DNA from: an uncultured virus (IMG/VR IMGVR_UViG_3300040946_000488)
Lineage: Duplodnaviria > Heunggongvirae > Uroviricota > Caudoviricetes
Reading direction: 5' to 3' (one strand)
IMG/VR virus record: IMGVR_UViG_3300040946_000488
DNA: 20,000 nucleotides
Part shown: positions 3,834 through 19,336 of the stretch, one piece after another
How positions within the stretch are numbered: the stretch's first letter is position 1
Layout of the letters: each line of letters starts with the position of its first letter
The notes under the pieces: model-generated
The model's input: the letters and a program-made list of their open reading frames with translations, nothing else
The model's database searches: none
What the model was told of the DNA's origin: nothing
Position numbers and translations under genes: made by a program

Positions 3834-5708
3834 GTGAACTCATCAATCCACCAATTGTGCCACCTACCCGAAGCCTCCAAAGAACCGCAATCCGACAATC
3901 CATTCTACATGGATAAATCAGAATTGAACTCGAAGTTTGGGAGATATTCCAAGAAGGATCTTGCCACGCTTGATGAAGTTCTCAGAGATCAATCTCACTC
4001 CATTCAAGAAGCCATCGACCTTACCCCTGTTCTCCTGAATGGATGGTACTGGACGGGACACCCAACCCGACAGGAACGCCTGAATCTCAAGGGAAAGTAC
4101 CTATTTTTCTCCCCATCTCGCAAGGTCCTGTCCAGAATTGCTTGGAAAGAGATGCAACGGTATCACATCAAACTGGCTAAAATTTCCGCCGTTCCTGTTG
4201 GAGGAGAACATGTCCTGTGCCTTTATCATCAGGACGACAGCCTGAAACTGAAATTGGCAAAATCTTCTTATTATGAACATGGGCTGGAAGCATACGGCTC
4301 TCTTTACTGCCAGAAGCGAAACCTAGAACCCTTTCCTGGACCCTTTCGAGGAAAATACCGTTGGTGGAAAAGCAACGAAGCCACTGACGCTGGCATCTAT
4401 TCGGCTGGTTTTTTGACGAAACTGTCACAGGTGGGGGCGGACGCCTGCGATCCGGAGGAGACAGCCAAGATCTTGGAGCGTATGCGTCTTTCTGACCTGC
4501 GTAGCAACCAGAGCAAGCCGGACAATATACCAGCCGAAGCCAAATGCGAATTGATCGTTGATGTGGCTGGACGGTCCTTGAAGGCCGTGACAAAGGATAG
4601 CTCGGTGCAACCCATTTCCAATCAAATCATACCAAAACAAACACTTCCTCCTCCAGGATTCAAGTCATTGTTGCCAACGGGAACGATCTATGCGGCAATC
4701 GGCCCGCACGAGAAGATCTTCTATATTGGATGGACAAGCAGAGATCTCCAGACACGTCAGAAAGAACATCTTTCCCGCTGCCAGAATTGGCTGGGCTACG
4801 TGTGGGAGGCCGGAACCCCCAAGCCATTTGCCATGTTATTGCACATGCTGCGCCGAAACGGAACAGCCCATCTCATTCATTTTGAAGAACTATGCCAAGG
4901 AACCAAACGAGATGAATGTAAATTGATCCAAGAAAAATGGCTTGAAGGCCATCCCATACTCAATCTAGGAATTCCTTGCCATGAGCTTCAAGAACCGTGT
5001 GGACACGGAGCTGACTGCACAAAGGCGTCCGTAAACCAGCTTGGTTGTCAAGGAACCATACTCAAGGGATTGGCTCACGTGAAACATCGCCTCGAACCGT
5101 ACATTGTCAGATGGGGATTGATCGACGACAAGTCAATGCTTTTCACAGTTCAGACTGCTTTAGAACCAATGTTAGTTCGGACATTTCGATTTGAACCAAG
5201 TCTTTGGAATTCGACAGTCCCATCGAAATCTCCCTGGAATCAGTGGATAGCGAAGACCAATTGGCTTGAACGAACCTCCTGGAATCGAACGAGACAGCCA
5301 CGTGAATATAATCACGACATGGCTCGATACGTAATAGAATTATACCAACAGGATGGAACGCACTATGGATATGCGCACGTCTATGTTGAAATATTAGACG
5401 ACCATACTGTAGGAGTATGCTCCTTCGAGGATTTGGCTGGAATCGCATATCCTCCTCCTGAGTTTCCCTTGAATGATGATCTCGAAATGTGTCTTACCCC
5501 GAGATACGACGAACCCCTCGATGAAATTAGGAACCATTTCTGGGAGGTGCCATCCTCACATCTCGATGCTGTGTTACAACAGCTATCCTTTGAAACTCCA
5601 TTGAAACTTACAACCATAGAAAGAGTTGACGAACACAAGTGGAATATCAAGAATCATGGTGGTGTAGGAACCAGCGGAATTGGTTGGAGACAAATAGAAA
5701 AAGGATAA
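3834..5708 (+). CDS. Multidomain protein: eIF4E-like (DUF1917/Bles03-like) N-terminal domain, central GIY-YIG nuclease motif, unknown C-terminus
   Basis: GKYLFF..AKIS..VLCLY..WKSNEATDAGIY pattern; TIYAAIG...FYIGWTSRDLQTRQKEH...E..LI...PILN; visibly AT-richer than flanks; start GTG 3834 or ATG 3909. Confidence 0.7.
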   Translation: MNSSIHQLCHLPEASKEPQSDNPFYMDKSELNSKFGRYSKKDLATLDEVLRDQSHSIQEAIDLTPVLLNGWYWTGHPTRQERLNLKGKYLFFSPSRKVLSRIAWKEMQRYHIKLAKISAVPVGGEHVLCLYHQDDSLKLKLAKSSYYEHGLEAYGSLYCQKRNLEPFPGPFRGKYRWWKSNEATDAGIYSAGFLTKLSQVGADACDPEETAKILERMRLSDLRSNQSKPDNIPAEAKCELIVDVAGRSLKAVTKDSSVQPISNQIIPKQTLPPPGFKSLLPTGTIYAAIGPHEKIFYIGWTSRDLQTRQKEHLSRCQNWLGYVWEAGTPKPFAMLLHMLRRNGTAHLIHFEELCQGTKRDECKLIQEKWLEGHPILNLGIPCHELQEPCGHGADCTKASVNQLGCQGTILKGLAHVKHRLEPYIVRWGLIDDKSMLFTVQTALEPMLVRTFRFEPSLWNSTVPSKSPWNQWIAKTNWLERTSWNRTRQPREYNHDMARYVIELYQQDGTHYGYAHVYVEILDDHTVGVCSFEDLAGIAYPPPEFPLNDDLEMCLTPRYDEPLDEIRNHFWEVPSSHLDAVLQQLSFETPLKLTTIERVDEHKWNIKNHGGVGTSGIGWRQIEKG

Positions 5709-6873: not shown

Positions 6874-6949
6874 CGCGCGAGGAGGGACTCAAACCCCCTG
6901 CCTCCGAGGTCATTACTCTACGGCGCTCTGTCAGTTGAGCTACTCGCGC
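6874..6949 (-). ncRNA. tRNA-like element with aberrant anticodon arm
   Basis: Acceptor GCGCGAG/CTCGCGC, D arm GCTC/GAGC, T arm GGGGG-TTTGAGT-CCCTC; anticodon arm bulged with ~9-nt loop. Confidence 0.7.
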
Positions 6950-7868: not shown

Positions 7869-7878
7869 GAGAAAAAAG

Positions 7879-7961
7879 TGCCCCCTGGGGGAGTCGGACC
7901 CCCACGGCCTTCCGGCCACCTGATTTTGAGCCAGGCGTGACTGCCATTCCACCAAAGGGGC
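7879..7961 (-). tRNA. trnL: tRNA-Leu(CAA)
   Basis: Cloverleaf, loop CTCAAAA, long variable arm, T loop TCCGACT. Confidence 0.92.
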
Positions 7962-7966
7962 AAAGG

Positions 7967-8049
7967 TGCCGGGAACAGGAATCGAACCTGCACGCCCTCA
8001 CGGGCGGGGGAGTTTAGGTCCCCCATGACTGCCATTCCATCATCCCGGC
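7967..8049 (-). tRNA. trnL: tRNA-Leu(TAA)
   Basis: Cloverleaf, loop CCTAAAC (C33), long variable arm. Confidence 0.9.
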
Positions 8050-8050
8050 A

Positions 8051-8136
8051 TGGTGCGCCCGGGGGGAGTCGGACCCCCACGGCCTTTCGGCCACACGACC
8101 CTGAATCGTGCGTGACTGCCATTCCACCACGGGCGC
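8051..8136 (-). tRNA. trnL: tRNA-Leu(CAG)
   Basis: Loop TTCAGGG, long variable arm, encoded CCA. Confidence 0.92.
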
Positions 8137-8137
8137 A

Positions 8138-8221
8138 TGATCGGCGAGGGAATCGAACCCTCACGTCCACAAGGGACACAGGTTCCTAAGACCTGCGCGA
8201 CTGCCATTCCGCCAGCCGATC
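8138..8221 (-). tRNA. trnL: tRNA-Leu(TAG)
   Basis: Loop CTTAGGA, long variable arm. Confidence 0.92.
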
Positions 8222-8226
8222 GTCGG

Positions 8227-8309
8227 TGCGAATGGGGAGACTTGAACTCCCACGGGGTTTCCCCCACTGGTCCCTCGAACCAGCGTGACTACCATTCCAC
8301 CACATTCGC
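8227..8309 (-). tRNA. trnL: tRNA-Leu(GAG)
   Basis: Loop TCGAGGG (C33), long variable arm. Confidence 0.9.
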
Positions 8310-8313
8310 ATTG

Positions 8314-8385
8314 AGCCGCCACGGGAACTCGAATCCCACTCTCCTGCTTACCAAGCAGGCACATCGCCATCAATGCTTTGGCGGC
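8314..8385 (-). tRNA. trnT: tRNA-Thr(GGT)
   Basis: Loop TTGGTAA, acceptor GCCGCCA/TGGCGGC. Confidence 0.9.
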
Positions 8386-8389
8386 ACGG

Positions 8390-8461
8390 AGTCCCCGGAG
8401 GGGATCGAACCCTCATCACCCGGTTTAGGAAACCGGGGCCAGTTCCAATCTGGACGAGGAC
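8390..8461 (-). tRNA. trnR: tRNA-Arg(CCT)
   Basis: Loop TTCCTAA; atypical D arm. Confidence 0.82.
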
Positions 8462-8470
8462 GTGAACTTG

Positions 8471-8542
8471 TGGGCCTGCCGAGATTCGGACTCGGAACCT
8501 TGCGATTATGAGCCACCCGCTCTACCGTTGAGCTACAGGCCC
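8471..8542 (-). tRNA. tRNA(CAT), Ile2-like body (could be Met)
   Basis: GGGCCTG acceptor, loop CTCATAA, weak anticodon stem. Confidence 0.8.
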
Positions 8543-8577
8543 GGACCAACCATCCATTACGCCACACCCAGAAACTG

Positions 8578-8650
8578 CGCCCACGACGAGAATCGAACTC
8601 GCCTCACTCGGTAGACAGCCGAGATGCTTCATCCAGAGGCACACGTGGGC
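8578..8650 (-). tRNA. trnD: tRNA-Asp(GTC)
   Basis: Loop CTGTCTA, G73. Confidence 0.88.
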
Positions 8651-8669
8651 AATGATCTGCCATCCCTTG

Positions 8670-8740
8670 TCGGAGCAGGGCGAATCGAACGCCCGCCTGA
8701 GCCACGTGAAGACTCGGTCCTCCCACTAGACGATGCTCCG
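8670..8740 (-). tRNA. trnV: tRNA-Val(CAC)
   Basis: Loop TTCACGT, A73. Confidence 0.88.
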
Positions 8741-8772
8741 TCTCTCCCGGCAGCACGAATTTCGATGTCAAG

Positions 8773-9139
8773 TGGACTCGGCGGGAATCGAACCCGCGTC
8801 CAGTATAGTGTTCAAAACGTCCAGCTACGAGCGTGTCTGGTTTCTTGGGGGCGAGAGACACCAGCATCTCCCACTGCTATGCCCTCCACCATCTCCTGTC
8901 CTTGGCCCTCAGCCGGAGAAGATCTGAGGGAGCGTCCCTGGATTAACGTCGCTGTCCGCTGCCGGGCGCTGGCGGGGCGACGCCTCTTGTCCCTGGCGGC
9001 AATCAAGCAGCCTGAGCGAGAGGAGCCTCGAACGCATTGTCGTTGGCTTTTGATTTTTGGCATGATTGATGAAGCGGCCTTCACACCTTCCGCTGCTCGC
9101 GTCCGTTCCTAGTCCTACCTGTCGATACCTTTCGAGCCC
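8773..9139 (-). ncRNA. ssrA: tmRNA; tag reading frame ANDNAFEAPLAQAA* at 9047-9003
   Basis: 5' GGGCTCG..TCGAC pairs with 3' CGAGTCC-A (G3:U70 alanine identity), GGAC-GCGGG-TTCGATT-CCCGC T arm, tag starting ANDN and ending AA. Confidence 0.95.
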
Positions 9140-9166
9140 AGGATGCCATGCTACCACGAAAATGAG

Positions 9167-9237
9167 TCGGAGCAGGAAGAATCGAACTTCCGTCTGAGGC
9201 TCGTAAAACCTCGGCCCTCCCACTGGACGATGCTCCG
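9167..9237 (-). tRNA. trnV: tRNA-Val(TAC)
   Basis: Loop TTTACGA. Confidence 0.9.
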
Positions 9238-9238
9238 G

Positions 9239-9310
9239 TGCGCGCGGCAAGACTCGAACTTGCGATCTCCGCCATGTCGAGGCGGCATCCTTCCACTGGA
9301 CGACGCGCGC
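9239..9310 (-). tRNA. trnV: tRNA-Val(GAC)
   Basis: Loop TCGACAT (C33). Confidence 0.9.
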
Positions 9311-9321
9311 TTGCGATCAAT

Positions 9322-9621
9322 TCATGCTCCCCTGGAAAACTCGTGCTCGCGACAGCTCCCGTCCGGCAGTACCCCCGTCCTCCGCGACCAATTCCGCCTG
9401 GCCCTGTCATAAGCCTCCTTGTCATCGTAGGAAATGGGACCTATCCAGGAAGGATGATCCTCCAGAGGCTTGGCCTTCGGATACGCAGGAACCGGATCAT
9501 TCTTGATGCAGTGAAGCTTGTCAGGTCCTTTCTTGGCCAAGAAACTGGTCTGCATCGTCATCGCCACGAATTTGCAATTCTGACACCTGCGGGAAAACCT
9601 GCAATACGTCTTCGGTCTCAT
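9322..9621 (-). CDS. 99-aa Cys-rich hypothetical protein inside the tRNA array
   Basis: GGAGGTG SD, CQNC...C...C..H putative metal ligands. Confidence 0.75.
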   Translation of the reverse strand: MRPKTYCRFSRRCQNCKFVAMTMQTSFLAKKGPDKLHCIKNDPVPAYPKAKPLEDHPSWIGPISYDDKEAYDRARRNWSRRTGVLPDGSCREHEFSRGA

Positions 9622-9636
9622 GTCTTTCACCTCCAG

Positions 9637-9709
9637 TCGGGATGGCCGGAGTCGAACCGGCAATCTCCTGTCCCCCAGACAGGCGGCTTACCAACAAGCC
9701 TTCACCCCG
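9637..9709 (-). tRNA. trnP: tRNA-Pro(GGG)
   Basis: Loop CTGGGGG, C1:G72 A73. Confidence 0.9.
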
Positions 9710-9817
9710 GTGGCCCCAGGAGATGACCCCTGGAGCCCATCCGCCATTAGCGGAGTCAGCTCACTTCAGCCAGTCCCTCCATGAGCACCCATCCCTGGAC
9801 GTCTCCAGCCTGGTGGA

Positions 9818-9892
9818 TGGTGCCAGCAGCGGGGAATGATCCCACTCCTTGCGCTTATGGGGCGCGAGTCCTGACCAACTCAGATTGCTGGC
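9818..9892 (-). tRNA. Atypical tRNA(CAT), possibly elongator Met
   Basis: Acceptor GCCAGCA/TGCTGGC-A-CCA, loop CCCATAA, non-canonical T loop ATCATTC and D/anticodon linker. Confidence 0.65.
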
Positions 9893-9896
9893 AGAG

Positions 9897-9969
9897 AGCC
9901 CGTGAGAGGATTTGAACCCCCATAGACCTGGTCCGTAGCCAGGCGCCTGATCCATTAGGCTACACGGGC
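9897..9969 (-). tRNA. trnR: tRNA-Arg(ACG)
   Basis: Loop CTACGGA. Confidence 0.92.
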
Positions 9970-9975
9970 GATTAG

Positions 9976-10047
9976 TAGCTCCGATGAGAATTGAACTCAC
10001 GTTCCCGAATTGAAAGTCCGGTGTCCTGTCCGTTGGACGACGGAGCC
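9976..10047 (-). tRNA. trnE: tRNA-Glu(TTC)
   Basis: Loop CTTTCAA. Confidence 0.92.
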
Positions 10048-10049
10048 GC

Positions 10050-10124
10050 TGGTGATCCCAGGGGGATTCGGACCCCGCATTCCTGCCGTGAGAGAGCAGT
10101 GTCCTGCCGTTAGACGATGGGACC
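10050..10124 (-). tRNA. trnE: tRNA-Glu(CTC)
   Basis: Loop CTCTCAC, encoded CCA. Confidence 0.9.
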
Positions 10125-10126
10125 AA

Positions 10127-10203
10127 TGGAGTCCTCGGCCGGAATCGAACCGGCATTGTGCCTGGATCGGAGCCAGGTGCCCTGTCCATTAGGCGACGAG
10201 GAC
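10127..10203 (-). tRNA. trnR: tRNA-Arg(CCG)
   Basis: Loop CTCCGAT, encoded CCA. Confidence 0.9.
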
Positions 10204-10205
10204 GG

Positions 10206-10278
10206 TGGAACCCCCGCCGGGACTCGAACCCGGGACGCCTGGTTTAGAGGACCTGGCTGCATTCCAATAGCCGGGGGC
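10206..10278 (-). tRNA. trnR: tRNA-Arg(TCT), degenerate D arm
   Basis: Loop CCTCTAA (C33), A.A mismatch in anticodon stem, canonical T arm, CCA. Confidence 0.7.
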
Positions 10279-10281
10279 AGA

Positions 10282-10357
10282 TGGCTCCGGGAGTAGGGAT
10301 CGAACCTACGACTTCTTGATTAACAGTCAAGCCGCATTACCACTCGCGTATCCCGGA
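10282..10357 (-). tRNA. trnN: tRNA-Asn(GTT)
   Basis: Loop CTGTTAA, T1:A72, G73, CCA. Confidence 0.93.
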
Positions 10358-10358
10358 A

Positions 10359-10433
10359 TGGAGCTGGTGAGAGGAGTCGGACCCCCAACCAACGCATTAC
10401 AAATGCGCTGCTCTGCCATTGAGCTACACCAGC
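10359..10433 (-). tRNA. trnT: tRNA-Thr(TGT)
   Basis: Loop TTTGTAA, CCA. Confidence 0.92.
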
Positions 10434-10434
10434 G

Positions 10435-10530
10435 TAGCGGGGACTGGATTTGAACCAGTGAAACCGAGATTATGAGCCTCGTGGGTTTCGATCCGGCTTC
10501 CACCGGACCTCCAGACTTCCCTACCCCGCA
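10435..10530 (-). tRNA. Initiator-like tRNA-Met(CAT) with extra hairpin in the D loop
   Basis: TGCGGGG/CCCCGCT-A with 1:72 mismatch, loop CTCATAA, T loop TTCAAAT; 96 nt. Confidence 0.8.
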
Positions 10531-10531
10531 G

Positions 10532-10603
10532 AGCCCATGCGCAGACTTGAACTGCGCTCGCCGGCTTACGAAACCGGAGCATCGCCGTCTATGCTTCATG
10601 GGC
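10532..10603 (-). tRNA. trnT: tRNA-Thr(CGT)
   Basis: Loop TTCGTAA. Confidence 0.9.
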
Positions 10604-10608
10604 GAATG

Positions 10609-10681
10609 AGCACCGTGCGAGAATCGGACTCGCGTGAAACCGGCTTGGAAGGCCGGCGCCCAGCCACTAGGCCAACGGTGC
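10609..10681 (-). tRNA. trnG: tRNA-Gly(TCC)
   Basis: Loop CTTCCAA, U73. Confidence 0.9.
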
Positions 10682-10684
10682 AGA

Positions 10685-10759
10685 TGGAGCGGAGGACGAG
10701 ATTCGGACTCGCGTCGTCTGCCTTGGCAAGGCAGTGCCTAACCACTCGGCCACCTCCGC
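10685..10759 (-). tRNA. trnG: tRNA-Gly(GCC)
   Basis: Loop TTGCCAA, U73, CCA. Confidence 0.92.
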
Positions 10760-10845
10760 ATCGGAGGCCCCGTTACCCGGGCCGGAGCTTTGATCCTCCA
10801 CGGAACCCACCGAGGTACTCCTTGTACTGGCCCGAGATCGCGATG

Positions 10846-10917
10846 AGCGAGGGACGGAACTCGGATCCGCATGATCTTCCTTGGGAAGGAAGCGCCTAAC
10901 CTCTCAGCCACCCTCGC
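10846..10917 (-). tRNA. trnG: tRNA-Gly(CCC)
   Basis: Loop TTCCCAA, U73. Confidence 0.9.
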
Positions 10918-11058
10918 AAACTGGCGATGCCGGAACGGATTGAGCGCGTAGATCGGTCGCGGTGACCCGCTGGCTCGCCAGATCCTGGCCGGTAGAGCCG
11001 GCGACGATGCTCGTGATCAAGGAGCATGATGTCTCGCCGGACGAGCGACTAGGTTTTG

Positions 11059-11129
11059 AGGCAGGAGCGGGAATCGAACCCGCGGTTGCAGTTTTGCAGA
11101 CTGCCAGCTTGCCACTTGCCGATCCTGCC
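11059..11129 (-). tRNA. trnC: tRNA-Cys(GCA)
   Basis: Loop CTGCAAA, U73. Confidence 0.92.
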
Positions 11130-11132
11130 ATT

Positions 11133-11411
11133 TCACGTCCACAGATCCGGATCCAACCTCCACCGGCCCCTCCCCTGCTTGGGGGAGCGATCCATCCCGA
11201 GGCCGCATGCCCCCCGCGCGACCTTGGGACGACCGGGAGTCTTCTTGCTGCAATGATGGCACCTCCATTCCCCATCCTTCCTCATGCCCAGATTCCTGGT
11301 GAGGAACCTGGAAGGCCACTTCCACCTCTCATGAGGACACACATCCCAGAACCTCCTCACCATCCACTTCACATAGTTCTCGTCTCGCCTTCGTCTCTCT
11401 CCGCGATCCAT
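11133..11411 (-). CDS. Small Arg/Trp-rich basic protein
   Basis: 92 aa, MDRGERRRRD start, CHHC motif, GGAAAGG SD-like sequence. Confidence 0.65.
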   Translation of the reverse strand: MDRGERRRRDENYVKWMVRRFWDVCPHERWKWPSRFLTRNLGMRKDGEWRCHHCSKKTPGRPKVARGACGLGMDRSPKQGRGRWRLDPDLWT

Positions 11412-11548
11412 GTTTGAGCCTTTCCCTGGCCCGCCCCTCTTCGGGGCTGACTAGGGAATGCCCTGCCCGTGCCTTCCTTCATGACGATTTCACCTCAATG
11501 TAAAGGGGCTTTAGATGATTGACCATGGATAGCAGTTTGGTCAATTCT

Positions 11549-12382
11549 TTACGGAGAGAGCGGAACTGCTAGGTTGAAGAACTCACTCTGCGTATTGGGT
11601 AGGATCAGCCGTCGGTCCTGCGGTACGCCCTTCCATCGCTCCTTCCTCTTGGGCTTGTAGAACACTAGGAAGTAGGAATGGCTCTTTCGAGCGTGTGCCT
11701 GTTGGAGTATCCGACTGACTCCGGGGCGCCCGTTGCGCATGACAACGAAGAGATCCTCTGCCACGAATCCGTAGGTCGCCAATTCGTTGATGATTTCTAC
11801 GTGTGTGAGGCGCTGGACGTTGGCGCAAACTTCATCCTGGCACTTGACGATGTAGATGCCACCCGCACGAAGCACCCGCCTAGCTTCCCGCGCTGCGGAG
11901 AAGTAGAGATCAAGAACCGCCTCGTGGTACTTGAGTTCCGACTGCGCTTGGTTGTTGCGATAGTAGTTCTCGAAGTTCTGATGTCTGTCGTGCGCTCCCT
12001 TCCCTGGCGTGTGCATGTACGGCGGATCGAATACAACGCAGTCGATGGAGCCGTCGTCGTACGGCAGCTTTCGGCAGTCGACCCCATGCATGAGATCCGA
12101 GGGAAGCAACCTGTACGCACCGGACGGGATCTTGCGCCAAAACACGCCTTTCCCGTACGTTACGTCTGCGACAGTGCTGCCTTTGGCGACGAACAGAACC
12201 ATCACCTGGGGGAACACGTCGTCGTTGTTGCCAACATACGAACTAAAGACGAGATCGTTGGTCGCGATGCCATCCGGTGCCTTCCGCTTCTTCTTCACCG
12301 GCGTCTCGCCTGTCGACGGGATGTCCGGAGATACCACGGGTTCGATGGAAATGAGATCGCGCAGCATCGTGGTCTGTTTCAT
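11549..12382 (-). CDS. Amino (N6-A/N4-C) DNA methyltransferase
   Basis: VADVTYGKG (SAM-binding motif variant) then CVVFDPPY and [10 protein letters not shown]; start 12382 or 12367 or upstream GTG 12433. Confidence 0.9.
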
Positions 12383-12451
12383 GTCGCACCTGTCTTCTAC
12401 GACGATTCCTTCGCGGGATGCTGCCCCCTCCACAAACCATCCCTGACAGGA

Positions 12452-12480
12452 ATCGTCTTACCACCCGAACTGGATGTCAA
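12452..12480 (-). promoter_or_regulatory. Candidate promoter of methyltransferase
   Basis: TTGACA-17 nt-GACGAT with GTTCGGG spacer motif. Confidence 0.5.
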
Positions 12481-12632
12481 GAAACAATCCCCATGAATCG
12501 AGGACCGGGCCGCCAGGTCGAAGGGATCCGTTCTGCACGGCGCACCCTCGCGAATGTGCTCCCAGCCACCTGGCGTTGCCCGGCGCCCCTGATTTTATCT
12601 CCATGGAGCCGGCCCCATGGCCGGCCATCGCC

Positions 12633-12785
12633 CTACCTGACAGGAACGATCCGGTATGCCGGAGTCCTGTCCTTCGATCCGCACTGCATGTATTGAGCGA
12701 CCTTGTCCGCGGCCTCCTGCCGCGTGTGGAACGGACCGCCAATGCGAACCCAGCGACCGTCCACGTACATCATGATCTGGTACAT
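12633..12785 (-). CDS. 50-aa hypothetical protein MYQIMMYVDGRWVRIGGPFHTRQEAADKVAQY...
   Basis: AGGAGG SD 7 nt before ATG; GC3-rich; below ORF-track cut-off. Confidence 0.75.
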   Translation of the reverse strand: MYQIMMYVDGRWVRIGGPFHTRQEAADKVAQYMQCGSKDRTPAYRIVPVR

Positions 12786-12894
12786 CGGACACCTCCTGTT
12801 GACTGTGGAGGCGTCTCTACGGTGGATGTCCTTTCATGCCGACACTCCCTTCATCCTTGATTCGCAGATGTCACATCCGAGGCTGAAAGGCAAT

Positions 12895-12923
12895 ATCTTC
12901 CTGCTGCCCGAACCAGATGTCAA
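12895..12923 (-). promoter_or_regulatory. Candidate internal promoter
   Basis: TTGACA-17 nt-GAAGAT with GTTCGGG spacer motif. Confidence 0.5.
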
Positions 12924-12934
12924 GGACCATCTCC

Positions 12935-13025
12935 TGGAGGAGAGTGCAGGAGTCGAACCTGCTCGGGGCTCGCGCCACCGGCTCCGGTTTAGCAAACCGG
13001 CCTGTTGCCGTTCCAGCAACTCTCC
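12935..13025 (-). tRNA. trnS: tRNA-Ser(GCT)
   Basis: Loop TTGCTAA, long variable arm, CCA. Confidence 0.92.
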
Positions 13026-13036
13026 ATGCCAACCTG

Positions 13037-13126
13037 AGGAGCTGGAGCGGGTCGAACGCTCAAAGCCGATCTCTCGGACTTGCCCGCTTTCAAGGCGGGA
13101 GGGCTTGCCACATGCCCAACAGCTCC
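13037..13126 (-). tRNA. trnS: tRNA-Ser(TGA)
   Basis: Loop CTTGAAA, long variable arm; paralogue of Ser(CGA). Confidence 0.9.
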
Positions 13127-13136
13127 ATCACGACAG

Positions 13137-13224
13137 AGGAGAGAGGGAGGATCGAACTCCCGTGGCGCTCTTCGCGCCAACCTCAGCTTTCCAAGCTGGC
13201 ACCTTGCCACTCGGTCATCTCTCC
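13137..13224 (-). tRNA. trnS: tRNA-Ser(GGA)
   Basis: Loop TTGGAAA, long variable arm. Confidence 0.92.
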
Positions 13225-13225
13225 A

Positions 13226-13318
13226 TGGAGGAGCTGGGGCGGGTCGAACGCCCATAGCCGATCTCTCGGACTAACCCGCTTTCGAGGCGGGCGGGCTTGC
13301 CAGATGCCCAACAGCTCC
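13226..13318 (-). tRNA. trnS: tRNA-Ser(CGA)
   Basis: Loop CTCGAAA, long variable arm, CCA. Confidence 0.9.
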
Positions 13319-13323
13319 GGGGG

Positions 13324-13394
13324 CGGGCCGTGAAGGAATCGAACCTTCATATCCGGATTTGGAGTTCGGAGTCCTGCCACTGGACGAACGACCC
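13324..13394 (-). tRNA. trnW: tRNA-Trp(CCA)
   Basis: Loop CTCCAAA, G73. Confidence 0.9.
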
Positions 13395-13400
13395 ACGAAG

Positions 13401-13471
13401 TGGAGACAGAGGGAATCGGACCCTCATTACCAGACTGCCAGCCTGGCGTCCTACCGTTGGACGATGTCCCC
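13401..13471 (-). tRNA. trnA: tRNA-Ala(GGC)
   Basis: Loop CTGGCAG, G3:U70, A73. Confidence 0.92.
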
Positions 13472-14023
13472 ATCAGGTTTCACCCTGGATTGCCGACCTC
13501 TCCCATGATTGCGACCCCTGTATGTCAAAGTCAAAGCATCACAATTGGGACAAATCAGCCTGAGATTCTCCTTTGCCCCATTATAAGCATTGCCGTCTAT
13601 GTGATCCACGACCAGAGGAATTGGCTCCCCCAACCACTCAGTCAATCCGCAAACCTGGCAAACCCGACCCCTCTCCCGCAAAAGTTGATCCTTGTTGAAA
13701 GACGCAGTCCCATAATGAGGAGGATGAATAAGCTTCAATCCCTCCAGACGTTGAGCCTTATCCTTACAATCCCTGGTGCAGAATCGAAGCCCGCTCCTGG
13801 ATCTAGAAAGCTGGCTCGTCGACCTCTCAAAAATCCTGCCGCACTGAGCACATGTGAGAGACACCCGACGACGCCTGTTCTTGCCCCTGCACGCCACAGA
13901 GCAACACACATACGTCTCCCCCACATGCTTGGGCACCCAAAATTCCGAATGGCACACCACACACACCCTAGCGAACAGCCTCCTCATGTGACCGTCATAT
14001 CGATCAGACACGATGGACTTCAT
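13451..14023 (-). CDS. HNH homing-type endonuclease with two N-terminal zinc-binding repeats
   Basis: CVVC..F....CCS..C and CAQCG..F....FCT..C repeats; CQVCG...LVVDHIDGNAYNGAKENLRLICPNCD; start 14023 or 13987. Confidence 0.9.
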   Translation of the reverse strand: MKSIVSDRYDGHMRRLFARVCVVCHSEFWVPKHVGETYVCCSVACRGKNRRRRVSLTCAQCGRIFERSTSQLSRSRSGLRFCTRDCKDKAQRLEGLKLIHPPHYGTASFNKDQLLRERGRVCQVCGLTEWLGEPIPLVVDHIDGNAYNGAKENLRLICPNCDALTLTYRGRNHGRGRQSRVKPDGDIVQR

Positions 14024-14066
14024 GAGATGAAATATACCTCATCTGCGCAAAACATATCAACTCCCG

Positions 14067-14139
14067 TGGACCTGGCGTGACTCGAACACGCCGCCTCCTG
14101 CGTGCGGAACAGGCGCTCTCCCAGATGAGCTACAGGCCC
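14067..14139 (-). tRNA. trnA: tRNA-Ala(CGC)
   Basis: Loop TCCGCAC (C33), G3:U70. Confidence 0.88.
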
Positions 14140-14144
14140 ATGTG

Positions 14145-14218
14145 TCAGCATGGCGGGCTCCGCCCCCGCGGCCTCCTGGTCCCGAACCAGGTGCGCCACT
14201 AGGCTGCGCCACACGCTG
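14145..14218 (-). tRNA. trnP: tRNA-Pro(CGG), aberrant T loop
   Basis: Loop TTCGGGA; T loop GGCGGAG. Confidence 0.78.
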
Positions 14219-14230
14219 AAAAAACTCGGG

Positions 14231-14305
14231 GGTGTTCGACGAGACTTGAACTCGCTTGGTCATGCGGTCACAGCGCACGGGCTCGACTCTTCGCCCTCGA
14301 ACACC
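14231..14305 (-). tRNA. trnH: tRNA-His(GTG)
   Basis: Loop CTGTGAC, G-1:C73. Confidence 0.88.
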
Positions 14306-14306
14306 A

Positions 14307-14382
14307 TGGTGGGGATGGAGGGAATTGAACCCTCATCTGCCGCTTATCGAGCGGCTGCCCTTGGCCGTTGTGCTACATCCCC
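14307..14382 (-). tRNA. trnI: tRNA-Ile(GAT)
   Basis: Loop TCGATAA (C33), CCA. Confidence 0.9.
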
Positions 14383-14521
14383 TCATCTTCCCCCTTTCCA
14401 GCGCCGTAGGGGAAGGGGACCAGAAACATTCCGGCCCACGGCTCTCGGCGCCCATGCCCCTGGGCGCCTTCGACACCTCCCAGGCAGGGCATTGTCGGAA
14501 ACACACCCGCCCGGGTGCTGC

Positions 14522-14596
14522 TGGTCGGGATGGCGGGACTCGGACCCGCATCGCCTCGGCCCCAGACCGAGTGCCTAACCTTTAGGCTACATCCCG
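14522..14596 (-). tRNA. trnP: tRNA-Pro(TGG)
   Basis: Loop TCTGGGG (C33), T loop TCCGAGT, CCA. Confidence 0.88.
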
Positions 14597-14603
14597 CTGA
14601 TTG

Positions 14604-14675
14604 TCGAAGCGGCGGGAATCGAACCCGCGTCGTCTCGGTCCCGAACCGAGTGCCTGTCCTCTAGGCTACACCCCG
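14604..14675 (-). tRNA. trnP: tRNA-Pro(CGG)
   Basis: Loop TTCGGGA. Confidence 0.9.
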
Positions 14676-14679
14676 CGAG

Positions 14680-14750
14680 TTCCGGCTGAGAGGATCGAAC
14701 TCCCGTATCCCGGGCCAAAGCCGGGCGCCCTGCCATTGAGCGAAGCCGGA
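14680..14750 (-). tRNA. trnQ: tRNA-Gln(TTG)
   Basis: Loop CTTTGGC. Confidence 0.9.
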
Positions 14751-14751
14751 A

Positions 14752-14826
14752 TGGTTCCCGAGGCACGAGTCGAACGTGCAACCAACGACTTCAGAGGCCG
14801 CTGCGCTCCCATTGCGCCACTCGGGA
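14752..14826 (-). tRNA. trnQ: tRNA-Gln(CTG)
   Basis: Loop CTCTGAA, CCA. Confidence 0.9.
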
Positions 14827-14944
14827 TCGATAGATCTGATGCCCTGCCGGCCTCGCTACGGCAACAGGACAACTTGATGACTTTTTCGACGGGGTCTTGA
14901 GTACCCCACCAGGAGGATGATTGCCACCCCCGGCATCAGATCAG

Positions 14945-15017
14945 TGCCCCGCTCCAGAGTCGGACTGGACCCTCGGCATCTTCAGTGCCGCGCTCGTCCC
15001 ACGAGAGCTTGCGGGGC
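14945..15017 (-). tRNA. trnF: tRNA-Phe(GAA)
   Basis: Loop CTGAAGA. Confidence 0.88.
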
Positions 15018-15060
15018 ATATGCGGGACTTGGCATGTCCCGCCGCTTTGTTCACTATTAC

Positions 15061-15073
15061 GTTTTCAGAGATC
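15061..15073 (-). promoter_or_regulatory. boxA-like antitermination element
   Basis: GATCTCTGAAAAC resembles rrn-leader boxA (GATCTTTGAAAAC type). Confidence 0.5.
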
Positions 15074-15080
15074 GCAGGAG

Positions 15081-15152
15081 TGAGACGCCAGGGAATTGAA
15101 CCCTGATTGACTGATTAAGAGTCAGCTATTCTAGCCGTTGAATTAGCGTCCC
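15081..15152 (-). tRNA. trnK: tRNA-Lys(CTT)
   Basis: Loop CTCTTAA. Confidence 0.92.
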
Positions 15153-15153
15153 A

Positions 15154-15229
15154 TGGTGCCCCTGAAGTGGCTCGAACACTCAATGAACGGGTTAAAAGCC
15201 CGCTGCCCTGACCATTGGGCTACAGGGGC
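15154..15229 (-). tRNA. trnK: tRNA-Lys(TTT)
   Basis: Loop CTTTTAA, CCA. Confidence 0.92.
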
Positions 15230-15236
15230 GTCTCGG

Positions 15237-15317
15237 TGGGCGAGGTGGGGATCGAACCCACCGTGTCCGAGGACAAGGGCTTTACAGGCCCCATCGTCAC
15301 CTTGACTGTTCTCGCCC
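15237..15317 (-). tRNA. trnY: tRNA-Tyr(GTA), first gene of the array
   Basis: Loop CTGTAAA, long variable arm, atypical D arm. Confidence 0.85.
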
Positions 15318-15372
15318 GCTCATCGAACGGGCGTTTATAGCCATCGTGTTTCATGAACGACCTCCTTGTACG

Positions 15373-15405
15373 AAAAAGGCCGCCTCGGAGTTCCGGGCGG
15401 CCTTC
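15373..15405 (-). terminator. Intrinsic terminator/attenuator upstream of the tRNA array
   Basis: AAGGCCGCCCGG-AACT-CCG(A)GGCGGCC followed by TTTTT. Confidence 0.8.
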
Positions 15406-15430
15406 GCAAAAGATTGAAACTGCTCTTGCT

Positions 15431-15580
15431 CTAGCCGCCCATCCTATCCTCCTGCTTGGTCCCTTCCGGGCGTGTAAATGATAGAGGGGCCAAGCTCGAT
15501 GGGGCATTGGGAGCATACGCCCATCCACAGACCGGATGGCCTGCGGATTTGATCGTGAGGTGTCGCGCTCTGAGGAACAT
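15431..15580 (-). CDS. Putative attenuator leader peptide MFLRARHLTIKSAGHPVCGWAYAPNAPSSLAPLSFTRPEGTKQEDRMGG
   Basis: 49 codons between promoter and terminator; 42 distinct codons, all 20 amino acids; last codons complementary to terminator 5' arm. Confidence 0.72.
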   Translation of the reverse strand: MFLRARHLTIKSAGHPVCGWAYAPNAPSSLAPLSFTRPEGTKQEDRMGG

Positions 15581-15597
15581 CTTCAGCTTCCAGGAGG

Positions 15598-15646
15598 ACT
15601 GTGGACCCTTCCCGAGAACCTGTCAACAACTTTTTTTCAGTTTTTT
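15598..15646 (-). promoter_or_regulatory. Main promoter of the tRNA array
   Basis: A-tract UP-like element, TTGACA (15626-15621), 17 nt, CACAGT (15603-15598). Confidence 0.65.
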
Positions 15647-15655
15647 CCCTGGCCC

Positions 15656-15991
15656 CTACTTGCGGATCTGAGCCGCCGCCGGCAGGGACGCAGGCCTCGT
15701 CGGCGGGATGGACCCCCGGATGAAGATCGGGGCTGCCGCCACCACCGCATCCGACAGCGACGCGAACGCCGCCAGGAGGGAAGCCCCCGCCGTGGCGATC
15801 CCAGGATCCACGGGCACCGATGCCGCCGCCGCCGGCTGCAACACCTTGCCACCCTTGACCATGATCATCATCCTGGCGGCCACGTTGGTCGGATCTGCCG
15901 TGTCCCGGACCGCGACCGAAGCCCTCACGGAATCCGCGAGGACCGTCACCGATTCGAGCGATGTCGTGTACGTCTTCTGGATCGTTGCCAT
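15656..15991 (-). CDS. 111-aa Ala-rich hypothetical protein (possibly virion-associated)
   Basis: AAGGA SD before MATIQKTY; GC3-rich. Confidence 0.75.
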   Translation of the reverse strand: MATIQKTYTTSLESVTVLADSVRASVAVRDTADPTNVAARMMIMVKGGKVLQPAAAASVPVDPGIATAGASLLAAFASLSDAVVAAAPIFIRGSIPPTRPASLPAAAQIRK

Positions 15992-16043
15992 GTTCGTTCC
16001 TTCTTTCCTGTGGATGGCCTGTGGCGGCCGTTTTCTCGGAAAT

Positions 16044-16355
16044 CTATGGGCTATCGTCCCTACAGGGCCAGTCGGGCAGGTCGACAGACTTGCCGGAAAG
16101 CCCATGGCTGCTGTCAGCATGGAACAGCAGCTTGCCAACCGTCAAGTTGAGATGACACCTGCGTCTCCCCGGATCAGGATTGTCGGGACTCGTGTTGAGA
16201 AGAGACGGCGAAAAAGTAGGGCTCGCCTGATCGCCATCGAATGCCCACGTGAAAGGTCCTGCCGTGAAGAATGCGTGAGTATGCTCACAACCCGGACAAT
16301 GGAAAGCCCAGCCCCTGATGGAGCCCCCATCATCGACTACCGGCTTGAGCTTCAC
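16044..16355 (-). CDS. DUF6527-like zinc-binding phage protein
   Basis: FHCPGCEHTH...W.FDGD..SPTFSPSLL...CH...G...F..DSSH.L.GK.VDLP; GTGA coupling with fibre gene. Confidence 0.8.
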   Translation of the reverse strand: MKLKPVVDDGGSIRGWAFHCPGCEHTHAFFTAGPFTWAFDGDQASPTFSPSLLNTSPDNPDPGRRRCHLNLTVGKLLFHADSSHGLSGKSVDLPDWPCRDDSP

Positions 16356-19336
16356 GGATTCGCCACCAACAATGTAGACACTCCCCCAATCGGGACCGAC
16401 AAATACACCGGCACAAGCTTGATGTTGCCATTATGATCCTGAATGAGCAGCGCCATGTCCGTAGTGTTGTTCGCCGTGAGATTGGACTCCGCGAACTGGA
16501 ACAAGTCAAGCACCGTGCCAGGCCCGACGCCGGGCTCGTTCGAGACGACCCGGAATGTCTGGACGTGACCGAAATACTGATCGAACACCGTCTCGTTGGC
16601 GCCCGCCGTGGCTCCGTACCCTATGGCGATAGCACTCACCCCGCTGGTCACGGCATCGGTCCCTATGGCGATGGTCCAGGTCCCGACGGCCTGCACGCCT
16701 GCCCCTATCGCCACATGATAGTCGCCGTCCGCCGAAGAACCCGTCCCGACCACCACACAGCCGTCCGCCGATATCCCATGGACGTTCGCCCCATCGCCGA
16801 CGACGACATTGCGGAGACCATCATTCTGGACCTGGGCGACATCCCCCAAGCACACATTCCAACTACCCGTCCCCTGGACCTGGGCATTGTAACCCACGCA
16901 CGTATTCTGATCTCCACCATTGGTCGACGCCCCATTTCCCATGACAACGGTATTAGTACCCGTCACCGTAGCCCCCAGCCCGATGGCAATGTTGCTATCA
17001 CCCACAATCGTAGAACCTGCCCCGATGGCAATGCCCCAGTCATTATACTCCTCAGCAGGCGAACCTGCCGAAGCATTCAAACCGATGGCGACACATCCCT
17101 GATTTCCTGGTTCCCCCGTACTGACCCCAACCCCAATCCCCACCGCATAAGACGCCCCCACATAAGATCCTGAACCAATAACAATCGAAGAAAAACCACT
17201 TATCGCAACATTGTCCCCAATCGCAACCGAACTATCAGCCGACATGGCAGTGCCGTCGCTGCCTATCCCCACCGAATTGTTCCCATCCACGTACACCCCC
17301 GGCCCCAACGCTATGCTGCCCTGGCCATTCGACGATACCGTGCTCCCACTCCCAATCGCTATCCCGTAATCAGTCAAGACCGAAGCATTCGCCCCCATGG
17401 CAATACAATCATTCAAGGGAATCGCGGACGTGGCAACCTGGCCCACGCTGGCAGACATCCCCATCACGACAGTACCAACCCCATAAGTCCCCGCCCCGTG
17501 CCCAATGACGACGTTGTCATCATAAGTCGTCGAGACGCTCAACCCCTGGTACCCCACCGTGGCCTCATACCCTATGGCCACGTTGTTGTTGGAAAAAACG
17601 CCGCTCAAGTGATCGCCAGCCTCGGCATAGTAGCCGAGGGCCACATTGAATTGACCCCACGTGAGGGCCGGCGAACCGATCGCGATGCTAAAATTGCCCG
17701 AAGCCCAGGCTCCCGTAGCCTCCGGCCCGCTGGAACCGATGGCAATGCCCCCCGTCTCCGCCAACTGCGAACCATAGGCATACACCCCAGCGACAGACTC
17801 ATGGCCTATGGCTATGCTGTCGGGACCCGCCGCCACGGCATCAGACCCAACAGCGATGGCATTGTCAGAATAAACATAAGACGAGAATCCGATGGAGACG
17901 GAATAGTCTGCCGCACCTATGGTGGAATCGCCCACTAACGCCAACCCCAATGCCACCGAATACATACCAATGACCGTGGAGGACGGACCCACCGCCACGG
18001 AATAGTCCGAATCGAACAGATCCGAAATGCTTGCGCCATCCCCGATGGCGATGGAACTGTTCCCCCATACGATCGCCCGCCTCCCTATGGACACTGTCAT
18101 GTCTGCATAACCGGCCGCTTGGTACCCGATGGCCAGAGCAGCATTATACGAACTCGGAAACGTGTATTGACCGCCCGCGGTAGTTTCAAACCCGATCGCA
18201 ATGCATCCCGTACCCCACGCATTGCCATAGGCACCCAAGGCCACACATCCCTCCTCAGAATAGTACCCCGAACCGATGTCACTGCCGGCATACTCGGAGG
18301 GACCGATGGCTATGCTCTCCATCCCGGTAGCCTCGGCATACCAACCCATGGCGATATTGTCAGAACCGTAAAAAGAATCGTATCCATTGGTGTGGGCTCC
18401 CAACCCGATCGCAATGCTGCTGCCATCAGTGAGAGAACCGTCATTGCAATTGGCCGGATAACCCGAAACCCCAATCTCGATGCTGCGGGGACCTAGCACC
18501 ATGCCCCCAGCAGACCTGAATGCCGCCCCCTCCCCCCCAGGGACCAACACCTGCACCGCCTCCGGATCCGTGAACCCCACCATATCGGAAGCATCAAAAA
18601 TAACCTTGCCTCCCTGAGCATCCTCCAAGCTGAAAGTCTGATCCAATGGTACCGATCCCACCTCGTAGGCAGCATGAATGGTCTCGCTAGCACCCCCTCC
18701 CGTCGCCGTCTGCGAACCCCCCATGGTCACGGTGAATGGAGAGAGGATGGTGCCCTTGACATTCAGGCGGACATACCTGATCCGATCGCCCGTGGCCAGC
18801 GGCGAGAACTCGAACGACTGGGCACCCAACAACGAGGATGAGGCAGGCTCCGCCGAGAACGATCCGATGGGATTGAAATCCTGGTCGTCGAGGCTGCCCT
18901 CCACCACCACCGAGCCCCGCACCCCTCCCTGCGCCAGGAAGTTCACGTCCCCCTGGTAATTGACCAGGCCTAGATCGCTGCTGGGCTGCGGGCCACTGTC
19001 CCCAGGCACCAGCGTCGGGAAAATCCCAAAAGTGTTATTGCCCGGCAACGACAGCCCAGATATGTTGGCCGTCACGCCCTGGGCACCCGTAACCTGCGAC
19101 CGGATCCTCACCCACTGCAAAGCGCCCGAGAAGGTCTGCTGGATGCCCTCTATGCCACCCGCCTTGAAGGACAAGATCGGATCGAAGTGGATCCCATCAT
19201 GGCTCCCGAGCAAGACGTACTGACCCTCGAACGTCCCGGACAAGGTGACGGTCTTCTCGCCCACCAGAACGGACACATTCACGGCGACGCCGTCGCCTGC
19301 GCTGGGCACGGGGATGTTTAGGATGAAGGTTGCCAT
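16352..19336 (-). CDS. Putative tail fibre/adhesin with YadA-head-like (SIAIG) beta-roll repeats
   Basis: 994 aa, dozens of ~14-aa (S/N)xAIG repeats; AGGAGG SD; no signal peptide or C-terminal barrel anchor evident. Confidence 0.85.
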   Translation of the reverse strand: MATFILNIPVPSAGDGVAVNVSVLVGEKTVTLSGTFEGQYVLLGSHDGIHFDPILSFKAGGIEGIQQTFSGALQWVRIRSQVTGAQGVTANISGLSLPGNNTFGIFPTLVPGDSGPQPSSDLGLVNYQGDVNFLAQGGVRGSVVVEGSLDDQDFNPIGSFSAEPASSSLLGAQSFEFSPLATGDRIRYVRLNVKGTILSPFTVTMGGSQTATGGGASETIHAAYEVGSVPLDQTFSLEDAQGGKVIFDASDMVGFTDPEAVQVLVPGGEGAAFRSAGGMVLGPRSIEIGVSGYPANCNDGSLTDGSSIAIGLGAHTNGYDSFYGSDNIAMGWYAEATGMESIAIGPSEYAGSDIGSGYYSEEGCVALGAYGNAWGTGCIAIGFETTAGGQYTFPSSYNAALAIGYQAAGYADMTVSIGRRAIVWGNSSIAIGDGASISDLFDSDYSVAVGPSSTVIGMYSVALGLALVGDSTIGAADYSVSIGFSSYVYSDNAIAVGSDAVAAGPDSIAIGHESVAGVYAYGSQLAETGGIAIGSSGPEATGAWASGNFSIAIGSPALTWGQFNVALGYYAEAGDHLSGVFSNNNVAIGYEATVGYQGLSVSTTYDDNVVIGHGAGTYGVGTVVMGMSASVGQVATSAIPLNDCIAMGANASVLTDYGIAIGSGSTVSSNGQGSIALGPGVYVDGNNSVGIGSDGTAMSADSSVAIGDNVAISGFSSIVIGSGSYVGASYAVGIGVGVSTGEPGNQGCVAIGLNASAGSPAEEYNDWGIAIGAGSTIVGDSNIAIGLGATVTGTNTVVMGNGASTNGGDQNTCVGYNAQVQGTGSWNVCLGDVAQVQNDGLRNVVVGDGANVHGISADGCVVVGTGSSADGDYHVAIGAGVQAVGTWTIAIGTDAVTSGVSAIAIGYGATAGANETVFDQYFGHVQTFRVVSNEPGVGPGTVLDLFQFAESNLTANNTTDMALLIQDHNGNIKLVPVYLSVPIGGVSTLLVANP

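Follow-up and report, generated by a model that had tools for sequence, protein, structure and literature searches.

A candidate leader-peptide attenuator ahead of a phage-like tRNA and tmRNA array

We analysed a 20,000-nucleotide (nt) window of an uncultured virus (IMG/VR record IMGVR_UViG_3300040946_000488), in which an element of ~250 nt lies on the minus strand directly ahead of an array of transfer RNA (tRNA) genes and a transfer-messenger RNA (tmRNA) gene. Its sequence points, tentatively and with somewhat less than even confidence on our part, to a ribosome-mediated leader-peptide transcription attenuator that would read the general progress of translation and gate at least the first tRNA/tmRNA block. 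The original prediction, made from the sequence alone, had described a promoter, a 49-codon open reading frame (ORF), a hairpin with U tract and then a tRNA gene on this strand, and all of these parts, the tRNA being tRNA-Tyr, lie where they had been placed. It had interpreted them as a pan-codon attenuator, a leader that samples codons of all kinds. The architecture of an attenuator stood up to analysis, with two exclusive folds, a stop codon in the antiterminator strand and a conserved module, whereas the every-codon design did not. We favour the attenuator reading because the two folds are balanced, the stop codon falls within the antiterminator, the module is conserved from the promoter on and the reading frame is kept. 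The parts of the element are the following, in the order of transcription:

15627-15650, minus strand: A-rich, UP-element-like tract upstream of the -35 hexamer; homology with a diverged lineage (lineage B, see below) begins here
15598-15626, minus strand: promoter-like site, TTGACA (15626-15621), 17-nt spacer, CACAGT (15603-15598), located by reading the sequence and by pattern match and presumed to function as a promoter
15587-15591, minus strand: weak Shine-Dalgarno-like GGAAG, 6 nt before the ATG (AGGAAG in lineage B)
15431-15580, minus strand: leader ORF of 49 sense codons plus UAG, with the ATG at 15580 and the UAG at 15433-15431
15433-15440, minus strand: antiterminator 5' strand, GGGCGGCU, whose final base is the U of the UAG stop
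15406-15429, minus strand: nested spacer hairpin, GCAAGAG / 10-nt loop / CUUUUGC, which draws the two antiterminator strands together
15395-15402, minus strand: shared strand, GGCCGCCC, identified by folding as both antiterminator 3' strand and terminator 5' arm
15373-15402, minus strand: intrinsic terminator-like hairpin of 10 bp with one bulged A and a 4-nt loop, followed by UUUUU; local energy -24.6 kcal/mol

The terminator-like hairpin reads GGCCGCCCGG-AACU-CCG(A)GGCGGCC at 15402-15378, followed by the U tract at 15377-15373. Complementarity between GGGCGGC (15440-15434), at the end of the ORF, and GCCGCCC (15401-15395), in the terminator 5' arm, had been pointed out before and is borne out by both sequence and folding. 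The antiterminator described here, GGGCGGCU together with the nested hairpin, is an addition beyond that complementary heptamer. We folded the transcript at successive 3' ends (15395, 15390, 15384, 15378 and full length). For transcripts ending at the first four of these positions the minimum free energy structure is an 8-bp helix (15440-15433/15402-15395) around a 7-bp hairpin, and the terminator fold is preferred by the complete transcript only. Cotranscriptional folding, which had been suggested as a check on the original prediction, agrees with it: the antiterminator forms first and the terminator in the full transcript, and the two are mutually exclusive, with one strand in common. Their local energies are balanced, at -23.9 kcal/mol for the 46-nt antiterminator and -24.6 kcal/mol for the terminator. 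Addition of the 8-nt arm gains -10.8 kcal/mol, compared with -4.5 ± 2.3 kcal/mol in dinucleotide shuffles of the upstream 190 nt, and 1 in 300 shuffles equals the observed gain; the terminator arm is fully paired in 7% of the upstream shuffles. The UAG stop lies inside the antiterminator strand. Judging from the size of its footprint, a ribosome that occupies the UAG or the codons just before it would cover this strand, and the ~29 nt left free between ribosome and polymerase would then correspond to just the terminator hairpin.

From sequence and folding we propose a mechanism, each step of which is inferred. Transcription would start ~10 nt ahead of the leader ATG. In the growing transcript, the 3' end of the ORF, GGGCGGCU, would pair with GGCCGCCC, aided by the nested hairpin, and this antiterminator would block the terminator hairpin and let the polymerase proceed into tRNA-Tyr and the later tRNAs. 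A ribosome that keeps pace and stands on the last codons or the UAG would cover GGGCGGCU, the terminator would form and transcription would stop. Ribosomes that are slow or stalled before about codon 43, or the absence of ribosomes altogether, would turn the tRNA and tmRNA genes on. Such a switch would sense overall translation rather than one amino acid, and a special every-codon design would be unneeded. Unlike leaders of the trp/his type, the ORF shows no grouping of regulatory codons for a single amino acid: its commonest codon, GGC, occurs 3 times, and there are no codon runs.

For the comparison of related DNA, one metagenome scan with a terminator 25-mer yielded 7 loci (L007-L013). Within the leader stretch, three of them (L007, L008 and L013) hardly differ from the window and make up lineage A; another three (L010, L011 and L012) are diverged by ~10% and make up lineage B. 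In IMG/VR the same 25-mer and a 25-mer from inside the ORF found 0 matches each. Similarity of L011 and L012 to the window starts at 15637, within the A-tract and ahead of the -35 hexamer, and the genes upstream differ; lineage B has both promoter hexamers unchanged. Aligned with L011, the window ORF differs by 11 substitutions in its 5' half of 75 nt (1, 5 and 5 at codon positions 1, 2 and 3) and, in its 3' half of 75 nt, by 4 substitutions and an in-frame 3-nt insertion in L011. The spacer is identical at 27 of 28 positions, the terminator at 31 of 31, and the neighbouring tRNAs are 83-93% identical. The sole spacer difference, at 15419, sits in the loop of the nested hairpin, and the lineage B sequence gives the same antiterminator/terminator fold pair. 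The predicted fold of the ORF 5' domain differs between A and B. Free change in the 5' half and an unconserved fold are what a leader peptide of irrelevant sequence would lead one to expect; a structured small RNA or a folded protein would fit them less well. The seventh locus, L009, is an unrelated 473-kb contig of high G+C; its 31-nt hairpin (9999-10029), the sole stretch in common, is identical to that of the window (15376-15406), and no U tract follows it there.

A conserved ORF position in related leaders, which the original prediction had named as an expectation, was found: the frame is intact in four of the six homologous loci (L007, L008, L013 and L011), with the stop position kept, and the leader ORF of L013 is 100% identical to that of the window. 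Peptide relatives of the leader are P0001 (49 residues), P0002 (64 residues, with a 15-residue insertion), P0004 and P0006, the last being the lineage B peptide, which is present on 5 contigs. Every one of them ends in GG-stop. In P0004 it is the final 45 residues that correspond to the leader over its full length, at ~50% identity and with a one-residue gap and a one-residue insertion relative to it. Four indels separate the variants (the 3 nt of lineage B, the insertion of P0002 and two in P0004), and each preserves the frame; in simulations, the ORF survives 15 random substitutions only 39-40% of the time. P0003 and P0005, two of the four matches of a profile search over 1.84 billion representatives, were dismissed as spurious, being long repeat proteins. 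When P0004 served as the query it matched itself alone, and searches of viral and genome contigs with the leader peptide, with the peptide alignment and with P0004 brought up no true relative. One further locus, L014, was rejected, as it matches the N-terminal extension of P0004 only and has no tRNA. The leader peptide has no match in Pfam or PHROG.

The codon content of the window ORF had been counted correctly: 42 distinct codons in 49, every one of the 20 amino acids, and the complete Ala and Pro codon sets of four each. Mononucleotide shuffles have a mean of 33.8 distinct codons (sd 2.2) and reach at least 42 in 1 of 20,000 and 3 of 20,000 cases in two runs, and uniform draws from 61 codons reach the observed diversity with P = 2.9e-4. 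The leader is also the most codon-diverse 147-nt stretch in the window, and the diversity is specific to the frame (42-43 distinct codons in frame versus 34-36 off frame). These figures speak for a leader built to hold every codon class or every amino acid, in which depletion, cleavage or non-charging of any tRNA would switch the replacement set on. We nevertheless consider this quite unlikely. The excess codon diversity that had been anticipated for related leaders is not seen in lineage B, whose ORF has 37 distinct codons in 50, an ordinary number (shuffle P 0.14), and lacks Cys. Fifteen neutral substitutions starting from the window ORF give a mean of 37.6 ± 1.9 distinct codons, so the lineage B value is the neutral expectation and nothing has held the diversity up. 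Simulations that start from lineage B reach 42 in only 0.1% of runs, which makes the window copy an outlier either way. Moreover, 19 sense codons are absent from the window ORF, including CTG, GTG, GAC, AAC, TAC, TGC and CGG, and several of these are the commonest codons for their amino acid. The variants are related and represent few independent events, and the codon-diversity statistic was picked after reading the sequence. Of the codons that had been called rare in nearby genes, AGA, CGA, CTA, TCA, ACA, TTT and TGT are indeed rare in the genes of the window, as are AAA and CCA, whereas AGG (20.5 per 1000) and TTG (19.7 per 1000) are not. The description of the tRNA array as complete could not be upheld, as ARAGORN detected no tRNA-His and only one CAT anticodon in the window.

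With regard to amino acids instead of codons, all 20 occur in four of five variants (the window, P0001, P0002 and the 45 aligned residues of P0004), and lineage B lacks one, Cys. A complete set in 49 residues is found in 1.7% of stop-free shuffles and in 1.6% of 2,574 real 49-residue windows, and a random 49-mer contains all 20 with P of about 0.007-0.017. Given the 24 residues that P0004 shares with the window, its remaining 25 supply the six missing types with P = 0.007-0.02; in a more conservative test, conditioned on the P0004 residues shared with any family member, P = 0.03-0.11. P0001 and lineage B differ at two positions, Y22C, which brings in Cys, and H7Y, which restores Tyr. The recurrence of the complete set is suggestive only, because the variants are related and few. 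Asp is confined to the last 6 codons in all five variants. Judging again from the ribosome footprint, a stall at Asp should still hide the antiterminator strand, so that the leader would be blind to one amino acid or more. That the leader is a translation-capacity sensor selected to hold every amino acid, in which ribosomes would stall before codon ~43 whenever nearly any tRNA species ran short, was cleaved or stayed uncharged during infection, and would thereby free the antiterminator and turn on the near-complete tRNA set and the tmRNA of the phage, appears unlikely to us.

The main rival of an attenuator is an independent small gene. The promoter, the ORF (or a small RNA of ~215 nt) and the terminator would form a small transcription unit of their own, the tRNAs would owe their transcription to leakage through the terminator, to phage promoters upstream or to a TATAAA sequence downstream of the terminator, and the antiterminator would have no role. 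We hold this to be possible, though rather less than likely. It would suit an element that is enclosed by a promoter and a strong terminator and whose RNA is stably folded at full length (z = -3.0, equalled by 2 of 200 shuffles), and the distant P0004 retains the reading frame and about half of the residues. Small RNAs that derive from attenuators or end in terminators are common in bacteria (cf. PMC6614838). The shuffles described above make a chance antiterminator unlikely, all the more with a stop codon within it, and the N-terminal half of the peptide has evolved free of constraint on its amino acids. The 5' domain, in which 5 pairs are broken between A and B, argues against a structured small RNA, and no Rfam, Pfam or PHROG family was matched. 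The TATAAA sequence belongs to a block that also bears on this question:

15331-15367, minus strand: conserved block after the terminator, with AAGGAGGT (15367-15360), ATG (15354-15352) and TATAAA (15339-15334)

Between terminator and tRNA-Tyr, 36 nt of this block are identical in A and B, TATAAA included, and the 13 nt that adjoin tRNA-Tyr vary. AAGGAGGT is a perfect Shine-Dalgarno sequence 5 nt before the ATG at 15354, and the 44-codon ORF that begins there runs through tRNA-Tyr and matches no Pfam or PHROG family. Two roles are conceivable for the block, as another promoter or as a site at which ribosomes load. Promoter activity at TATAAA would make an attenuator less convincing; TATAAA is not preceded by a -35 match, and from the terminator to 14060 the consensus scan listed no further promoter-like site on the minus strand. 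Neither this block nor, by pattern search, the leader promoter has a second copy in the window. Parts of the stretch are covered by contigs of three metatranscriptome runs (X18, X19 and X20), which show neither ends, strand nor level of a transcript and may derive from DNA. Two of these contigs bridge the terminator (X18, 15137-15750; X19, 15123-15505), which is compatible with read-through as well as with DNA carry-over. Both contain a C-to-U change at 15397 that keeps a G-U pair in both alternative helices. X18 covers 30 of 30 bins at a depth of 2-21.

Two further explanations do without a role for translation. In a translation-independent RNA switch, a protein, small molecule or tRNA bound to the RNA upstream would decide between the same two folds, and the ORF would be incidental. 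The balance between the alternative folds would fit this equally, as would the conservation of the ORF 3' half and the spacer (95-96% in nucleotides, above the neighbouring tRNAs) and the stem GCUUGGCCC/GGG.ACCAAGC, which is invariant in all four aligned sequences. We regard such a switch as very unlikely given that the four indels are all in frame and the stop position is kept, that the 5' structure is unconserved between A and B and that no Rfam family, T-box and riboswitches included, was found at its gathering score. Mere coincidence, that is, an ordinary terminator near a promoter-like site with an ORF and a complementary heptamer by chance, can draw on the ease with which G+C-rich arms pair, as seen in the 7% of shuffles with a fully paired arm, and a 49-codon open frame is not rare at the 59% G+C of the window (~0.2 per frame by our own estimate). 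The 31-nt hairpin, present also in the unrelated L009 and close to the terminator consensus of the small RNA RcsR1, appears to be of a common type. Against this, the whole module is conserved as a block from the promoter on, the frame is kept across four lineages and the energy gain of the arm was equalled by a single shuffle in 300; coincidence is thus the least probable explanation in our judgement, and a highly improbable one.

Several observations weigh against the attenuator reading itself. At the promoter, the -10 hexamer CACAGT is weak and agrees with TATAAT at 3 of 6 positions only, which is why the site is absent from the list of the consensus promoter scan. The Shine-Dalgarno sequence of the leader is weaker than the GGAGG of the upstream gene for a 994-residue protein, and the 5' untranslated region would have only ~10 nt. 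No terminator-like site was found between the upstream genes in the same direction and the leader, and the X18 contig also runs across the leader promoter. The codon adaptation of the leader ORF (0.61) lies between that of the window genes (0.74 ± 0.07) and that of off-frame controls (0.545 ± 0.067), which we count against the ORF being read, and also in favour of a leader over a folded protein. Substitutions between the window and lineage B favour third codon positions only weakly (8 of 15). The sample of peptides is small and is biased to intact frames because the relatives were found via called ORFs, and P0004 has Val at the position of the leader ATG, its called ORF beginning 31 codons earlier. 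In two of the six loci, L010 and L012, single-base gaps break the leader frame. We read these breaks as assembly errors, because L010 is also gapped within tRNA-Tyr. The shifted frames (L010, 1587-1718; L012, 1055-1192) end at a UGA just before GGGCGGC, adjoining the antiterminator strand.

On the side of the RNA, the DNA comparison covers two lineages only, A and B. RNAalifold gave 69 pairs with 0 compensatory changes, 6 one-sided changes that are kept and 5 broken pairs, and the antiterminator and terminator strands are invariant between the lineages and hence uninformative on covariation. As a candidate anti-antiterminator we found only an imperfect long-range pairing (15440-15434/15570-15559), which loses to the antiterminator once the arm is transcribed. 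We saw no convincing anti-antiterminator, and the folds predict read-through without a ribosome, unlike in trp. Finally, the conserved Shine-Dalgarno sequence, ATG and TATAAA behind the terminator are left unexplained by an attenuator, and the TATAAA could be a separate promoter of the tRNAs.

In comparison with known systems, T-box riboswitches, with their specifier and T-box motifs, are in direct contact with uncharged tRNA and stand ahead of genes for aminoacyl-tRNA synthetases or amino-acid metabolism. The element resembles them in linking a terminator/antiterminator switch to tRNA status; the T-box model gave no match at E <= 10 in 15300-15750 with Rfam. In phage T4, the tRNA region consists of clustered tRNA genes together with other small RNA genes, and homing endonuclease genes lie among them. 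The array studied here is like T4-type clusters in its clustering, its other small RNA gene and the endonuclease gene within it. We know of no leader ORF or attenuator described for phage tRNA clusters. A full-text literature search, with many papers in subscription journals outside its scope, revealed no leader-ORF attenuator ahead of a tRNA array or operon in the texts that it covered.

The attenuators of trpL, hisL, pheL, thrL and leuL (cf. PMC3082878 and PMC4046918) likewise have a short promoter-proximal ORF followed by an intrinsic terminator. Antiterminator and terminator share a strand in the trp/his type as well, and here, too, a ribosome at the end of the ORF would mask the antiterminator. 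In contrast to that type, the leader has no codon run for a single amino acid, with no codon used more than 3 times, and no clear 1:2 anti-antiterminator, so that a lack of translation is predicted to give read-through. Furthermore, the genes downstream are tRNAs and a tmRNA instead of biosynthetic enzymes, and the element is phage-like. Also comparable are the ribosome-stalling attenuators that sense translation inhibition ahead of resistance genes, namely mef/mel-msr(D) (cf. PMC4335068) and those of the erm, vmlR and bmrCD types. Their leader ORFs also lack amino-acid-specific runs, slowing of the ribosome favours the antiterminator, and their output reports general translation stress. They differ in responding to drug-bound ribosomes at particular peptide motifs and in controlling resistance proteins, whereas the leader described here has no known stalling motif and its output would be tRNAs and tmRNA. 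The small RNA RcsR1 of Rhizobiales (RF02552) is similar in its terminator: GCCGCCCG..CGAGGCGGC with the U tail is nearly the RcsR1 terminator consensus. RcsR1 was the only Rfam match with a low E value, and we rejected membership since the score was 26.7 bits against a gathering score of 60 and the terminator alone aligns confidently. A likeness of CCGGAAGG..AAGCAG to a motif of the signal recognition particle RNA was likewise dropped, having no Rfam support.

Large phages carry tRNA arrays. If the attenuator reading is true, a phage would gauge the performance of the ribosomes and respond with its own tRNAs and a ribosome-rescue RNA, and attenuation would be joined to the role of phage tRNAs against depletion of host tRNAs. 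If the leader were in addition amino-acid-complete, it would provide a self-contained counter to host defences that target tRNAs or to host shut-off. Selection for all 20 amino acids would be a new design principle for leader peptides.

The genomic setting agrees with a phage: from its gene content we infer that the window is part of a large uncultured phage. The array that the leader is presumed to control has the following extent:

7878-15317, minus strand: tRNA/tmRNA array presumed to be under leader control, with genes for an HNH endonuclease and a DNA methyltransferase in between

ARAGORN places 42 tRNA genes and a single tmRNA gene at 15317-7878, each of them on the minus strand, with tRNA-Tyr (15317-15235) at the head. 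Rfam confirms the tmRNA and 33 tRNAs in the window, one of which (6874-6949) is not listed by ARAGORN. This tRNA-like gene, on the minus strand at 43.2 bits, lies ~1 kb past the last listed tRNA of the array, and a standard anticodon arm cannot be read in it. The HNH endonuclease gene is located at 13451-14023 and the DNA methyltransferase gene at 11549-12433, and the product of the latter is 53% identical to mycobacteriophage proteins. Of the promoter-like sites listed by the scan, the best-scoring is TTGATA-18-TATATT, with 10 of 12 positions matched, at 14031-14060 on the minus strand directly upstream of the HNH endonuclease gene. Because this site is within the array, the tRNAs 3' of it may not depend on the leader. 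Along the array, L013 is 95% identical to the window over 14618-17632 and 72-82% identical across the rest; the drop near 14600 indicates that the tRNA array is mosaic, with a recombination boundary at about this position.

Upstream of the leader are three genes in the same direction, for the 994-residue protein, which has YadA-head repeats and a PHROG match, for a small protein and for a 111-residue protein. We take the small protein to be DUF6527-like; Pfam gave no match to it. Six loci related to it were found, none with tRNAs, and the 111-residue protein has no relatives in IMG/VR. With blastn, 15200-16400 found no match among GenBank phages and 15200-17400 none among the plasmids of PLSDB, and no near relative of the window DNA was found in these two collections or among IMG/VR contigs. 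The likeness of the terminator to RcsR1 and the tmRNA tag ANDNAFEAPLAQAA hint, as a lead only, at an alphaproteobacterial host. Beyond the array, a 624-codon ORF on the plus strand (3834-5708) has a third-position G+C of 0.48, compared with 0.7-0.8 in its neighbours, and looks like a recent insertion. It matches no Pfam or PHROG family, and by eye it contains a candidate GIY-YIG-like stretch.

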